This document shows positions 18,694 to 26,239 of a stretch of 64,000 bases of DNA, piece after piece. The stretch is from assembly GCF_003334355.1 (NCBI RefSeq), contig NZ_QOWP01000002.1. One strand, written 5' to 3'. Under the pieces are notes generated by a model, which was given only the letters and a program-made list of their open reading frames with translations, was not told the origin of the DNA and made no database searches. The stretch is from Escherichia coli. Its GTDB lineage: Bacteria; Pseudomonadota; Gammaproteobacteria; Enterobacterales; Enterobacteriaceae. How positions within the stretch are numbered: position 1 is the stretch's first letter; each line of letters starts with the position of its first letter. Made by a program: the position numbers and the translations under genes.

Positions 18694-19782
18694 ATGAATA
18701 ACCGGGAAAAGGAGATCCTTGCAATTTTACGGCGTAACCCGCTGATTCAGCAGAACGAAATTGCGGACATGCTGCAAATCAGTCGTTCGCGCGTTGCGGC
18801 GCATATTATGGATTTAATGCGCAAAGGGCGGATTAAAGGCAAAGGTTACATTCTCACCGAGCAGGAATACTGCGTAGTGGTGGGGACAATCAATATGGAT
18901 ATTCGCGGGATGGCGGATATCCGTTACCCGCAAGCGGCTTCTCATCCCGGTACAATTCATTGCTCGGCGGGCGGCGTGGGACGCAACATCGACCACAATC
19001 TGGCGCTGTTAGGCCGTGACGTCCATTTGCTTTCAGTGATTGGCGATGACTTTTATGGCGAAATGCTCCTGGAAGAAACGCGCCGTGCCGGCGTGAATGT
19101 CTCCGGCTGCGTTCGTTTGCATGGTCAAAGCACATCGACGTATCTGGCAATTGCCAATCGAGACGATCAAACCGTGCTGGCGATTAACGATACCCATCTG
19201 CTGGAACAGTTGACACCGCAACTACTGAACGGGTCGCGCGATTTACTTCGTCATGCGGGCGTGGTACTGGCTGATTGCAACCTGACAGCCGAGGCGCTGG
19301 AATGGGTCTTTACCCTCGCTGATGAAATCCCGGTGTTTGTCGATACCGTTTCAGAATTCAAAGCGGGCAAAATCAAACACTGGCTGGCGCATATTCACAC
19401 CCTGAAACCCACTTTACCGGAGCTGGAAATTTTATGGGGACAGGCGATCACCAGCGATGCTGACCGTAATGCCGCAGTGAATGCATTGCATCAGCAAGGT
19501 GTTCAGCAACTGTTTGTTTATTTGCCCGATGAGTCAGTTTATTGCAGCGAAAAGGATGGAGAACAATTTTTGCTGACCGCGCCAGCGCATACGACAGTAG
19601 ACAGTTTTGGTGCTGACGATGGTTTTATGGCGGGCCTGGTATATAGCTTTCTTGAAGGATACAGTTTCCGCGACAGCGCCCGTTTTGCGGTAGCCTGCGC
19701 GGCAATTTCGCGCGCCAGCGGCAGCTTAAACAACCCTACCCTGTCTGCCGATAACGCGCTTTCATTAGTGCCAATGGTGTAA
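18694..19782 (+). CDS. yeiI: Uncharacterised PfkB-family sugar/nucleoside kinase with N-terminal HTH domain (paralogue of pseudouridine kinase)
   Basis: 362-aa ORF; N-terminal HTH (EILAILRRNPLIQQNEIADMLQISRSRVAAHI) fused to a ribokinase-like domain with a GGVGRN motif. Confidence 0.85.
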   Translation: MNNREKEILAILRRNPLIQQNEIADMLQISRSRVAAHIMDLMRKGRIKGKGYILTEQEYCVVVGTINMDIRGMADIRYPQAASHPGTIHCSAGGVGRNIDHNLALLGRDVHLLSVIGDDFYGEMLLEETRRAGVNVSGCVRLHGQSTSTYLAIANRDDQTVLAINDTHLLEQLTPQLLNGSRDLLRHAGVVLADCNLTAEALEWVFTLADEIPVFVDTVSEFKAGKIKHWLAHIHTLKPTLPELEILWGQAITSDADRNAAVNALHQQGVQQLFVYLPDESVYCSEKDGEQFLLTAPAHTTVDSFGADDGFMAGLVYSFLEGYSFRDSARFAVACAAISRASGSLNNPTLSADNALSLVPMV

Positions 19783-19788
19783 CAATGT

Positions 19789-19826
19789 TGCCGGATTCGA
19801 CGCTTGACCGCATCTTATCCGGCTCA
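19789..19826. repeat. Degenerate REP-like element downstream of nupX and yeiI
   Basis: gccggattcgacgcttgaccgcatcttatccggctc resembles the REP consensus. Confidence 0.5.
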
Positions 19827-19837
19827 TAAATTGCGCA

Positions 19838-23027: not shown

Positions 23028-24278
23028 TTACGCCAGACCAATAAAGAACCCGGCAATAGTCGCACTCATCAGGTTGGAAAGCGTTGCTGCTGCCAGCGCC
23101 CGTAAACCAAGCTGGGCGATTTCTGGAGCACGTTTTGGCGAAATAGCCGAAAATGCGCCAACGACAACACCGATAGAACCAAAGTTAGCAAAACCACAAA
23201 GCGCAAAGGAGATAATCGCAATGGTTTTCACTTCCAGCGTGCCGCCCGTTTGCAGGTATGGGGAGAAACTCAGGTAAGCGACGAATTCGTTAATCGCCAG
23301 TTTCTGCCCAATCAGGCTACCCGCAAGATTGGCATCACTCCAGTCCACACCCATGATCCACGCCAGCGGTGCCAGCACATAGCCAAAAATACTTTCCAGA
23401 GAGGCATTGGCGAAACCAAACCAGCCACCAATTCCGCCGATAATGCCGTTGATCAGCGCAATAATTGCGACAAACGCCATTACCACCGTCGCTACACCAG
23501 CGGCGATTTTCAGCCCGGTCATCGCACCGCTCGCCGCCGCTTCGATAAAGCTTTTTGGCGGCGTTTCGCTGAACGACAGATTTTCAAATGTGACCTGCGA
23601 AGGCTCGGTGGCCGGGCTAAGAATACGTGCAAACAAAATACCACCTGGGATCGCCATCAGCGATGCCGCTAACAGGTAGTCAATTGGTACGCCCATTCCG
23701 GCATAACCAATCATCATCGAACCAGCAATGGACGCCATCCCGCTACAAATTGCGGTAAACAACTCGTTGCGATTCATGCGATCGATAAACGGTTTAACGA
23801 TCGCCGGGATCTCATTTTGCCCGAGGAAAATAGTTGTGACTGCGACAAAAGATTCGATTTTGCTGATGTTAAGAGCTTTCTGGAAAATGCTGCCAAGGAT
23901 GCGAATCAGCAGCCCCATCACGCCAATGTAGTACAGCAGACTGATGAGCGCAGTAACGAAAATAATCGCCGGAAGTACGCGAAAGGCGAAGATAAAACCC
24001 GCACCGTCAAACAGGACATCCATTTTCGGCCCAACCAGCGAACCAAAAATGAAGGCGCTACCGGCATCACTGTAAGACATCACTTTATGAACGCCTAATG
24101 CCGCCTGTTCTACTGCCCATTTTCCCGGTGGGAAGTAGAGCATGATGCCACCAATAGCGATTTGCAGCAGCAGTGCGGCTCCAACCGTACGCAAACTGAT
24201 GCTCTTTTTATTCACTGACAACAGAAATGCTATTGCCAGTAACACCACCATCCCCACAACACTTCTCATTATGTCCAT
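23028..24278 (-). CDS. psuT: Pseudouridine/nucleoside transporter PsuT (CNT family)
   Basis: 416-aa polytopic ORF, paralogue of nupX; last gene of psuKGT. Confidence 0.88.
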   Translation of the reverse strand: MDIMRSVVGMVVLLAIAFLLSVNKKSISLRTVGAALLLQIAIGGIMLYFPPGKWAVEQAALGVHKVMSYSDAGSAFIFGSLVGPKMDVLFDGAGFIFAFRVLPAIIFVTALISLLYYIGVMGLLIRILGSIFQKALNISKIESFVAVTTIFLGQNEIPAIVKPFIDRMNRNELFTAICSGMASIAGSMMIGYAGMGVPIDYLLAASLMAIPGGILFARILSPATEPSQVTFENLSFSETPPKSFIEAAASGAMTGLKIAAGVATVVMAFVAIIALINGIIGGIGGWFGFANASLESIFGYVLAPLAWIMGVDWSDANLAGSLIGQKLAINEFVAYLSFSPYLQTGGTLEVKTIAIISFALCGFANFGSIGVVVGAFSAISPKRAPEIAQLGLRALAAATLSNLMSATIAGFFIGLA

Positions 24279-24371
24279 AATGATTTTCCCTTCATGCCAG
24301 TAAACCCGGCGTCAGCGCCAGGTTTTGGTATGTTTGATGAGTACGGGCGACGGCTTTCTGCCCGTCAGAAA

Positions 24372-25310
24372 TTAACCCGCGAGACGCTGGTATTCTTTGG
24401 CAATTTCACTCGCCAGAATGGCGTTGTTGAACACCAGCTGGATATTGGATTTCAGGCTGTCACCGCCGGTCAGTTCAGCAACGCGCGCCAGCAGGAACGG
24501 TGTACTTTCTTTACCAATAACGCCCTGCTCTTCGGCTTCGGCGACGGCTTGATCTATGGCTGCATTGATAGATTCCTCCGGCATCGCAAACTGTTCCGGG
24601 ATCGGGTTCGCTACCACGAGGCCACCGTTCAGCCCGCTTTGCCATTTCACCGCCATTGCACGGGCAATTTCACTGGCGCTGTCGAGACGAATGCTGACGT
24701 CAAACGAGCTGGTACGGCAGAAAAACGCAGGCAGCGCTTTAGTCTGATAGCCAATTAACGGCACACCGAAGGTTTCTAAATACTCAGTGGTTAATCCTAA
24801 ATCGAGAATAGATTTCGCCCCGGCACAAACAACGGTGACATTAGTATTTGCCAGTTCTTGCAAATCGGCAGAAATATCGAAGGTATGTTCCGCCCCGCGA
24901 TGCACACCACCAATTCCCCCGGTGGCAAATACTTTAATTCCGGCAAGCGCCGCAATAATCATCGTTGAAGCCACAGTGGTTGCGCCATTTTTTCCGGCGG
25001 CAACAACAAAAGGTAAATCGCGACGACTAACTTTGGTCACGTTATGCCCTTCACGACCCAGTAATTCAATTTCTTCTTTACTTAAACCCACTTTCATCAC
25101 GCCGCCAATAATGGCGATAGTGGCAGGTACTGCGCCCTGTTTACGAATAGTTTCTTCTACTTCAATTGCGGTCTGGGCATTTTGTGGGAACGGCATCCCG
25201 TGAGAAATAATGGTCGATTCCAGCGCCACAACCGGTTTTTTGTTTTTTAAAGCTTCCTGCACTTCCGGGGAAATTTGTAATAATTCAGGGGAAATTTTTA
25301 ATTTAGACAT
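24372..25310 (-). CDS. psuG: Pseudouridine-5'-phosphate glycosidase PsuG
   Basis: 312-aa ORF MSKLKISPELLQISPEVQEALKNKKPVVALESTIISHGMP... (indigoidine synthase A-like family). Confidence 0.9.
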   Translation of the reverse strand: MSKLKISPELLQISPEVQEALKNKKPVVALESTIISHGMPFPQNAQTAIEVEETIRKQGAVPATIAIIGGVMKVGLSKEEIELLGREGHNVTKVSRRDLPFVVAAGKNGATTVASTMIIAALAGIKVFATGGIGGVHRGAEHTFDISADLQELANTNVTVVCAGAKSILDLGLTTEYLETFGVPLIGYQTKALPAFFCRTSSFDVSIRLDSASEIARAMAVKWQSGLNGGLVVANPIPEQFAMPEESINAAIDQAVAEAEEQGVIGKESTPFLLARVAELTGGDSLKSNIQLVFNNAILASEIAKEYQRLAG

Positions 25311-26239
25311 TCTGCGTTCTCCACTAACGATATAACGTTGGCAATCGATAAATCGGGGTTATTGGTGTATTCACAGGAGAGCGCCATTGACGAACATCCC
25401 TGTGCGAAACGAACAGATTCGGCAAACGGCATTCCGTCTACCCAACACGAAGCAAGTCCCGCCATCATGGCATCGCCCGCTCCGGTAACATTAATAACAT
25501 TGGTTTTGATCGGCGCAGACCAGCCATTTTCACCTCTGATATCGCTGTAATAAACGCCGTCGCCGCCCATGCTCAATACCAGTCGGTTCAGGCCATGTTG
25601 ATGGAACCAGGCAGCAACTTTTGCCACATCGTCACGCCCTGACAGCGCAATCCCACTCAGGGTTTCCGCTTCAAGGCGGTTTGGCTTCAGAGTGTGGATC
25701 TGATTTAGACGGTCGCGCACTTTGACACATTTCCATGCGGAAACCGGATCGACAAATACGGGTACGTTGGCGGCATTATCCAGAATCCATGCCAGTGCCT
25801 CTTCACTGATATTACAGTCCGCAACAATGACCTTTGCCCTCTGAATAAATTCACGGTGCTGTGCGAGATATTCAGCTGTAATAGCGTTGCTAATATTCAT
25901 GTCATTTATAGCAACCAGCATTTCACCGGTATTATCGAGTAATGATAAATAACTAGACGTATTTTCTCCCGGCACAATCAGGCATTTATCGACATAAACG
26001 CCAGATTGATTGGTTTGCGTTAGCAGCGATTGACCATAAAAATCACTGCCTACTGCGCTCAGTAGCCAGGCTTTGTTACCCAGCAACGCCAGGTTTTGTG
26101 CAATATTGCGCCCTACTCCACCAGGCGTAAATTTTATTTTACCTGGATTTGAATCCGCATAATTTAATGATTCATGTGAATATCCGGCGACATCAATATT
26201 CGCCGAACCTATAATTACGACATAATCCTTTTCGCGCAT
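25298..26239 (-). CDS. psuK: Pseudouridine kinase PsuK (PfkB family)
   Basis: 313-aa ribokinase-like ORF with GGVGRN motif; overlaps the psuG start by 13 nt. Confidence 0.9.
   Translation of the reverse strand: MREKDYVVIIGSANIDVAGYSHESLNYADSNPGKIKFTPGGVGRNIAQNLALLGNKAWLLSAVGSDFYGQSLLTQTNQSGVYVDKCLIVPGENTSSYLSLLDNTGEMLVAINDMNISNAITAEYLAQHREFIQRAKVIVADCNISEEALAWILDNAANVPVFVDPVSAWKCVKVRDRLNQIHTLKPNRLEAETLSGIALSGRDDVAKVAAWFHQHGLNRLVLSMGGDGVYYSDIRGENGWSAPIKTNVINVTGAGDAMMAGLASCWVDGMPFAESVRFAQGCSSMALSCEYTNNPDLSIANVISLVENAECLN

Follow-up and report, generated by a model that had tools for sequence, protein, structure and literature searches.

A candidate pseudouridine sensor beside psuKGT: YeiI and the two gene units of the Escherichia coli yeiI-psuK locus

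Why should a bacterium keep, beside its pseudouridine kinase PsuK, a second protein of the same PfkB type, YeiI, that carries a DNA-binding domain at its N terminus? In this study, we explored the question in a 64-kb stretch of an Escherichia coli chromosome (the window), where yeiI and the psuK-psuG-psuT genes (psuKGT) enclose nupX, rihB and yeiL. The window is 100% identical to strain EA2 from yeiI to psuK and lies near ATCC 8739; some match to this stretch occurs in 5,426 of 5,426 complete E. coli genomes. The locus itself is already known, and yeiI is one of the remaining uncharacterised genes of E. coli K-12, termed so both in PMC9061257 (2022) and in PMC12506659 (2025), in line with an initial annotation of this DNA that took the substrate handled by yeiI and its neighbours not to be established. 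That annotation grouped yeiI with nupX, rihB and yeiL in a module parallel to psuKGT. Our findings favour a different model, where YeiI is probably a pseudouridine-sensing repressor of psuKGT, derived from an ancestral kinase-regulator whose roles were split between PsuK and YeiI; this reading is absent from the literature that we searched. The features concerned are the following.

17834-18691, plus strand: nfo (endonuclease IV), with a stop codon that precedes the yeiI ATG by 2 nt
18694-19782, plus strand: yeiI (NCBIfam NF007416, PRK09954)
18694-18858, plus strand: yeiI codons 1-55, winged helix-turn-helix domain (Pfam HTH_24)
18859-19782, plus strand: kinase-like domain of yeiI (PfkB, PsuK-type), pseudouridine pocket kept, ATP, Mg and transfer motifs altered
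23028-24278, minus strand: psuT, CNT permease, third gene of the psuKGT operon (TIGR00804, NupC)
24372-25310, minus strand: psuG, pseudouridine-5'-phosphate glycosidase (PF04227), with orthologues 3' of fused kinases elsewhere
25298-26239, minus strand: psuK, pseudouridine kinase without a helix-turn-helix (NF007355), of the identical family to PDB 7vkp

NCBIfam equivalog models back every gene name at the locus and, together with the open reading frames (ORFs), bear out the gene content and coordinates first proposed for nfo-yeiI, nupX, rihB, yeiL and psuT-psuG-psuK. YeiI scores 811 bits against NF007416, the equivalog of "sugar kinases" fused to a helix-turn-helix (HTH), with residues 1-362 covered and a cutoff of 561, and PsuK 715 bits against NF007355 (cutoff 540). 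The fusion itself is clear, with HTH_24 at residues 1-48 (E 2.3e-10) followed by PfkB at 58-348 (E 9e-67), and so is the paralogy of the two kinases, which share 39% identity over 307 residues (E 2e-76), the GGVGRN motif included; both had been noted initially. The AlphaFold2 model of YeiI (predicted local distance difference test, pLDDT, 88.5) shows a winged HTH of three helices and a wing plus a PsuK-like fold, whose kinase domain superposes on the E. coli PsuK structure 7vtd with a TM-score of 0.95 and a root-mean-square deviation of 1.8 A. No entry with an HTH-PfkB architecture was found in the PDB. YeiI resembles E. coli PsuK (PUKI; PDB 7vkp, 7vtd, 7vva) in its PfkB fold with a beta-thumb small domain, in its ribose- and uracil-recognition residues and in having its gene nearby, and departs from it in the N-terminal winged HTH, in the absence of the GXXG small ATP loop, of the NXXE asparagine and of the second GAGD glycine, and in standing outside the psuG operon.

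The residues behind this likeness and this difference are informative. In PsuK, pseudouridine is recognised through Ser30, which reads N1, together with Asn143, Lys170, Asn14, Asp16, Tyr97, Asn112 and Met114; Ser/Thr30, Asn143 and Lys170 form the hallmark hydrophilic triad, Asn14 and Asp16 bind the ribose, and Asp256 is the catalytic residue (PMC9061257). A second structural account of PsuK describes a small ATP loop with a conserved GXXG motif, and density that is probably Mg close to Asp164, Asn187, Glu190 and Asp256 (PMC9247573). We surveyed these positions across 16 YeiI orthologues, which span at least 10 genera, against about 80 kinases, psuG-linked and fused or HTH-less, from several phyla. 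The pocket is kept: Ser30, Asn143, Lys170, Asn14, Asp16, Tyr97 and Asn112 are retained in 15 of the 16 orthologues (the triad and the ribose binders being S83, N196, K223, N67 and D69 in E. coli YeiI), while Met114 is replaced by Thr; the YeiI clade thereby has three fixed changes in the pocket, M114T, D29A and N31H. The ATP and transfer motifs, on the other hand, are altered in all 16: Asn187 of NXXE is Thr, Ala or Ser (TLPE for NRLE in E. coli), both GXXG glycines are gone (PDES, P225...S228, for GGDG, G225...G228, in E. coli), Thr252 is Phe or Val, and Gly255 is Asp, turning the GAGD of the GxGD anion-hole motif into GADD. These same positions are nearly invariant in the kinases used for comparison, apart from slight variation at Thr252; at Asn112 those kinases frequently carry Ser or Ala.

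Do these changes amount to the loss of an enzyme? A YeiI that is still bifunctional, acting as regulator and as a second kinase for pseudouridine, a modified pseudouridine or another C-nucleoside, would be consistent with the equivalents of the catalytic base Asp256 and of Asp164 and Glu190, all kept in E. coli YeiI; they make residual or altered kinase activity possible and count against a purely sensory protein. It would agree, too, with the purifying selection on the kinase-like domain, with the clade-fixed M114T, D29A and N31H, which could retune specificity, and with the finding that PsuK itself fits m1-pseudouridine (PMC9247573). Yet the four positions invariant or nearly so in some 80 active-type relatives have all changed, and position 225 of the ATP loop is hypervariable in the YeiI clade (P, K, Q, E or D), as expected in a site freed from constraint. 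Moreover, Glu replaces the catalytic Asp in Affinibrenneria YeiI, and the Glu of NXXE is lost in Entomohabitans and in Phytobacter V91. A 2025 critique of annotation by machine learning counts YeiI as a pseudouridine kinase among the predictions that it deems inconsistent, arguing that the activity is that of PsuK and that a psuK mutant is unable to use pseudouridine (PMC12506659). The literature searched yielded no assay of YeiI. From the residue patterns we consider a working kinase in YeiI unlikely; its phosphoryl-transfer catalysis may well have been lost, a point on which we stop just short of leaning either way.

Degenerate catalytic motifs could also mark a functionless relic, the palindromes before psuK (see below) then being bound by an unrelated regulator, and truncated forms of yeiI do exist. 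The window copy has a private change within the conserved di-glycine/Asn motif, A101D (18994-18996), giving GGVGRNIDHN where K-12, ATCC 8739, D8 and the large protein clusters have GGVGRNIAHN. Against such decay, the ratio of nonsynonymous to synonymous substitution (dN/dS) across Escherichia stands near 0.1 for the kinase-like domain and at 0.02-0.04 for the HTH, where constraint within YeiI is strongest, so that yeiI is not a decaying gene; furthermore, the full-length ORF occurs in at least 10 genera, always adjoining psuKGT. A relic is therefore very improbable, and a repressor that keeps its DNA-binding domain and its ligand pocket remains the reading that we prefer.

Comparison with other bacteria indicates where such a protein may have come from. 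A protein search found the HTH-PfkB architecture in many lineages, and we scanned its context in one genome per species (77 loci, with the E. coli proteins mapped on). Outside Enterobacteriaceae, and with individually inspected loci counted in, psuG lies directly downstream of the HTH-PfkB gene, on the same strand, in 75 of 77 loci; in the other two the contig ends just past the kinase gene. The 75 informative loci (75/75) span Proteobacteria, Clostridia and Spirochaetes. In Aeromonas, Yersinia and Proteiniborus, for instance, the fused gene is immediately 5' of psuG, often overlapping it, and in Yersinia a CNT permease gene follows. Judged by this linkage, the HTH-fused protein is the pseudouridine kinase of its operon. 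YeiI shares with the psuG-linked proteins of Yersinia, Serratia, Aeromonas, Shewanella, Clostridia and others the two-domain architecture and a very similar HTH, including the helix-3 motif SRSxVAxHI. They differ from YeiI in keeping all catalytic and ATP motifs and in being co-operonic with psuG, and are probably bifunctional; they are themselves uncharacterised, though some sources label them "pseudouridine kinase". Since the pocket residues are kept in YeiI and its relatives are linked to psuG, its ligand is most likely pseudouridine, and not some other nucleoside.

In a neighbour-joining analysis of these kinases the YeiI clade is recovered with 100% bootstrap on a long branch, as sister to a group (92.5% bootstrap) that joins enterobacterial PsuK with fused kinases from Yersinia, Serratia and Photorhabdus. 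The kinase domain of the Yersinia protein shares 61% identity with PsuK and 49% with YeiI. Within Enterobacteriaceae, E. albertii, three Citrobacter species and Enterobacter asburiae have nfo, yeiI and a convergent psuT-psuG-psuK without nupX, rihB or yeiL; the same pairing of yeiI with psuTGK is found in Affinibrenneria (Pectobacteriaceae) at another chromosomal site, without nfo, nupX, rihB or yeiL.

If YeiI is a regulator, where would it bind? The fused kinase genes are preceded by 14-bp palindromes of the form YAAAC-N4-GTTTR, often in two copies 19 bp apart and at most 60 nt from the start codon; over the last 200 nt before the fused genes their AAC-N4-GTT core has a density of 2.9 per kb, versus 0.25 per kb across the loci. 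Palindromes of the type that precedes the psuG-linked fused-kinase operons also precede psuK, two of them, 18 bp apart and directly 3' of a putative -10. The elements of this region, in the direction of psuK transcription, are given below.

26396-26411, minus strand: CRP-like site TGTGA-N6-TCAAA, TGTGAGCCTGCTCAAA, centred ~70 nt upstream of the putative transcription start
26340-26367, minus strand: putative psuK promoter, -35 TTTACT (26367-26362), 16-nt spacer, -10 TACTAT (26345-26340)
26328-26339, minus strand: candidate operator O1, GAGCACATGTTT, of the YAAAC-N4-GTTTR type, abutting the putative -10
26310-26321, minus strand: candidate operator O2, GAACACATGTTT, top position weight matrix match in the 64-kb window

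The putative promoter has 8 of 12 consensus matches, below the threshold of the scanner. When eight psuK promoters from Escherichia, Citrobacter and Enterobacter are aligned, five blocks are conserved (the two palindromes, the -35, the -10 and the CRP-like TGTGA-N6-TCA(A/T)A) while the remainder diverges, and TTGTGA...TCA.ATCT is invariant in 8/8. We assign the last block to CRP, provisionally, from the known consensus; its position, ~70 nt upstream of the putative start, fits class I activation. A position weight matrix trained solely on non-enterobacterial sites ranks 26309 first among ~64,000 window positions. In Affinibrenneria (14.5, next-best 7.8) and C. amalonaticus, too, its top match falls upstream of psuK, and in Phytobacter that region comes second. 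The palindrome type is absent from the rihB-yeiL and rihB-nupX intergenic regions and from the region upstream of yeiI. YeiI, the only HTH protein of this kind found at the locus, is the obvious candidate to bind the psuK pair, and the placement of the palindromes over the transcription start suggests repression. The psu operon is inducible: in urine, where pseudouridine is present, PsuG is strongly induced and belongs to the top five up-regulated proteins of uropathogenic E. coli (UPEC; PMC9149909). The regulatory role hinted at initially from the HTH of YeiI would, as this evidence suggests, be correct. Our literature search returned no psu regulator and no paper on an HTH-fused pseudouridine kinase, the curated regulon databases lying outside its range. 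Across 16000-29500, Rfam gave no riboswitch or small RNA match at E <= 0.1. A third exact copy of GAACACATGTTT, at 41948-41959 within a 364-residue ORF (41123-42217), is probably due to chance.

Several observations weigh against this interpretation. The exact AAC-N4-GTT core is present in only 32 of 74 non-enterobacterial upstream regions; the E. coli site scores 13.35, no higher than the best site of shuffled 64-kb sequences (mean 13.55); and the degenerate palindrome is not enriched in the window (7 observed versus 8.5 expected). With score and count at chance level, the case for the operator rests on position, pairing and conservation across genera. The psuK palindromes could also be bound by some other transcription factor. 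The sister placement of YeiI may mean that the duplication predates the loss of the HTH from the PsuK lineage, or may be a long-branch artefact. Finally, no HTH-coding remnant was detected 5' of psuK, the best tblastn match having an E of 0.015 over 16 residues.

Overall, the model that we put forward holds two units of different origin, one nested in the other: a pseudouridine locus, made of psuKGT with yeiI tail to tail, and a self-contained yeiL/rihB-nupX cassette for pyrimidine nucleosides. YeiI would descend from an HTH-fused pseudouridine kinase whose gene, in most bacteria, stands immediately upstream of psuG; in those bacteria the fused protein probably acts both as the kinase of pseudouridine and, by way of YAAAC-N4-GTTTR palindromes, as the repressor of the operon that encodes it. 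In Enterobacteriaceae and Pectobacteriaceae these functions would have been divided, with PsuK, devoid of the HTH, as the enzyme, and YeiI keeping the HTH and the pseudouridine pocket and losing the conserved ATP and Mg motifs. YeiI, whose synthesis from the nfo transcript is probably low, would most likely repress psuKGT by occupying the palindrome pair immediately 3' of the psuK -10; pseudouridine binding would release it, possibly via the ligand-induced dimer closure documented for PsuK, and the CRP-like site would add catabolite control. The sequences themselves show which genes are present and in what order, how the residues have changed, where the motifs lie and what is conserved; DNA binding, ligand, sign of regulation and loss of kinase activity are inferred from these.

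This model has precedents among enzyme-derived one-component regulators such as BirA, NadR and the ROK-family proteins NagC and Mlc, in which an N-terminal HTH is joined to a sugar-kinase fold. In all of these, a metabolic enzyme fold joined to an HTH senses the ligand on behalf of the genes of the same pathway, and NagC and Mlc are non-catalytic relatives of kinases. YeiI differs from them in belonging to the PfkB/ribokinase fold and not to ROK/ASKHA, in its presumed modified-nucleoside ligand and in its active paralogue next door. Unlike the psuG-linked fused kinases, it would act in trans on an operon with a separate kinase. Viewed as a possible enzyme-derived repressor, it shows a strongly constrained DNA-binding domain, with a candidate tandem operator (26310-26339) in the promoter of the pathway. 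A stronger version, in which YeiI is a dead PfkB "pseudokinase" acting as a one-component pseudouridine-sensing repressor, dimer closure is the switch, and its relatives are an unrecognised family of bifunctional kinase-repressors, we offer only tentatively.

The prediction is specific, as it names a protein (YeiI), a 30-bp target and a ligand, and it would correct the machine-learning annotation of YeiI as a second pseudouridine kinase. Given that pseudouridine is abundant in urine and PsuG strongly induced in UPEC, the psu switch matters for metabolism in the host niche, and it is also relevant for strains engineered to make pseudouridine for mRNA production. If the model is true, psuK and yeiI would show neatly, in a natural setting, how the two roles of a bifunctional protein can pass to an enzyme and a regulator paralogue, and the HTH-fused relatives in Proteobacteria, Clostridia and Spirochaetes would be bifunctional kinase-repressors that have gone unrecognised.

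What, then, of the genes that separate yeiI from psuT?

19838-21088, minus strand: nupX, CNT permease, second gene of the rihB-nupX operon (TIGR00804, NupC)
21188-22129, minus strand: rihB, pyrimidine nucleoside hydrolase (NF007417)
22230-22244, no strand assigned: TATGAGAAATCTCAT palindrome, candidate YeiL box for the divergent yeiL and rihB-nupX, 15-29 nt before the yeiL start codon
22259-22957, plus strand: yeiL, CRP/FNR-family regulator divergent from rihB (NF007707)

RihB scores 727 bits against NF007417 (cutoff 459), YeiL 413 bits against NF007707, and NupX and PsuT 499 and 518 bits, respectively, against the CNT/NupC-family model TIGR00804 (cutoff 442). By layout, the locus comprises four units: nfo-yeiI, with its 2-nt gap, rihB-nupX, yeiL, divergent from rihB, and psuK-psuG-psuT, beyond which fruA is the next gene. 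The gene yeiI is convergent with nupX, not co-oriented. At the nfo-yeiI junction a scan showed no promoter-like or terminator-like site, and the two genes stay neighbours in Escherichia, Citrobacter, Enterobacter and Phytobacter. They are probably transcribed together, and nfo is known to be inducible by oxidative stress.

Could yeiI, nupX, rihB and yeiL nonetheless form one module paralogous en bloc to psuKGT, as the initial annotation proposed, that serves a nucleoside other than pseudouridine? The genes are adjacent in E. coli, and the complete E. coli gene order recurs in C. amalonaticus and Phytobacter ursingii, which also rules out a cassette specific to E. coli; a ribose-releasing hydrolase could pair with a ribokinase-like kinase, and the yeiL cassette of Enterococcus does include a PfkB gene. 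On the other side, yeiI occurs without rihB-nupX-yeiL in the six genomes described above, and Hafnia alvei has yeiL/rihB-nupX (with a CNT permease) alone, with no yeiI or psu genes within the 12.7 kb examined, which together make them two separate units. Convergent with nupX and probably transcribed with nfo, yeiI is also kept in the approximately 1,000 E. coli genomes that appear to have lost nupX. Furthermore, YeiI retains the pseudouridine hallmark residues, no operator is shared, and pairwise comparison shows RihB and PsuG to be unrelated proteins. The two pairs of paralogues, moreover, are unequally diverged (89% identity for the permeases, 39% for the kinases), and gene orders and strands are not collinear, so that neither a block-paralogous module nor a segmental duplication is supported. 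A single module is thus most unlikely, and we are highly confident that yeiI belongs with psuKGT and that yeiL/rihB-nupX is a separate cassette inserted between yeiI and psuT. The initial annotation had made its module depend on a YeiI that is catalytically competent and co-regulated with nupX; the sequence evidence leans toward a protein that is neither.

The permeases tell a history of their own. NupX and PsuT are indeed paralogues of 416 residues each, as first described, but "near-identical" overstates the case: 369 of 416 residues are identical (89%, no gaps), and the genes are 78.5% identical, with third codon positions at 51%, a saturated synonymous divergence (dS) of ~1.5 and a longest identical run of 23 nt. 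This short run and the even ~51% identity at third positions rule out a recent gene conversion between nupX and psuT in E. coli. The CNTs at the psuT position cluster closely, with 94-98% identity between the proteins of Escherichia, Citrobacter, Enterobacter and Phytobacter; outside this cluster fall those at the nupX position and the rihB-linked CNT of Hafnia; the latter two are 86-91% identical to PsuT and only 71-76% to the psu-linked CNT of Yersinia. NupX is, on this evidence, a diverged copy of the PsuT lineage. The difference between 89% and 39% identity, taken with the CNT grouping, indicates that the permease duplication is almost certainly much younger than the split of the kinases. 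As nupX and psuT are direct repeats flanking rihB-yeiL, the cassette may have entered by recombination at the permease gene, and may have been lost where the two copies recombined with each other. In C. amalonaticus and Phytobacter the copies at the two positions are 94% and 92% identical, respectively, while NupX orthologues of different genera are 86-90% identical, which suggests occasional gene conversion between the direct repeats in these species. In function, NupX transports both uridine and cytidine weakly, whereas PsuT transports neither, nor xanthosine (PMC11241209).

The cassette appears to have its own regulation. RihB is a characterised cytidine/uridine hydrolase, and in Hafnia and Enterococcus, too, yeiL stands opposite an operon headed by a rihB-type hydrolase and is transcribed away from it. 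The palindrome TATGAGAAATCTCAT is unchanged from E. coli to Hafnia, its ATGAGAAATCTCAT core being shared without variation by E. coli, C. amalonaticus, Phytobacter and Hafnia (alignment A3), and in the otherwise unalignable yeiL spacer of Enterococcus a nearly intact palindrome, TATGAGAATTCTCAC, is found; TATGAGAAATCTCAT is likely the YeiL box. Divergent yeiL, hydrolase-first operon and ATGAGAAATCTCAT palindrome are common to the cassettes of E. coli, Hafnia and Enterococcus. The E. coli cassette is distinct in being embedded in a pseudouridine locus and in having a close PsuT paralogue as permease, that of Enterococcus in its ABC transporter and added PfkB kinase, which form with the hydrolase the operon divergent from yeiL. 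The YeiL proteins of E. coli and Enterococcus are 57% identical, which suggests that yeiL has moved between phyla.

Within E. coli the locus is itself variable. Two deeply divergent allele types exist, separated by sharp breakpoints (window 18600-19593 and 22941-26701). Compared with D8, the window shows a nucleotide identity of 72-75% in yeiI (~18600-19593), 74-92% over psuT-psuG-psuK and 53-57% between psuK and fruA, versus 94-100% in nfo, rihB, yeiL and fruA. The D8 type resembles E. albertii (dS 0.3-0.4), while the K-12/window type differs from both D8 and E. albertii by a dS of 0.9-1.5; as this exceeds the value for nfo between the two species (~0.5), it suggests that the K-12/window allele was imported from an unknown donor. 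In D8-type genomes nupX is reduced to short 5' and 3' stubs (D8 locus 2590-2856); the count of such genomes, ~1,000 of 5,426, is an estimate from the 80-90% identity band, in which five of five sampled rows had the short 6.4-kb form. ATCC 8739 has an internal stop in nupX (L001, 5145-6395). With nupX lost while rihB and yeiI are intact, nupX would seem dispensable. The spacer between yeiI and nupX (19783-19837) is a REP-like palindromic element, and K-12 has an extra REP-like unit of ~51 bp (L005, 5790-5895), lacking in the window and D8. In E. coli CUPS04, a deletion runs from the 3' part of yeiI to psuK, leaving a truncated yeiI that overlaps a slightly extended psuK; this strain is a natural mutant without nupX, rihB, yeiL, psuT and psuG.

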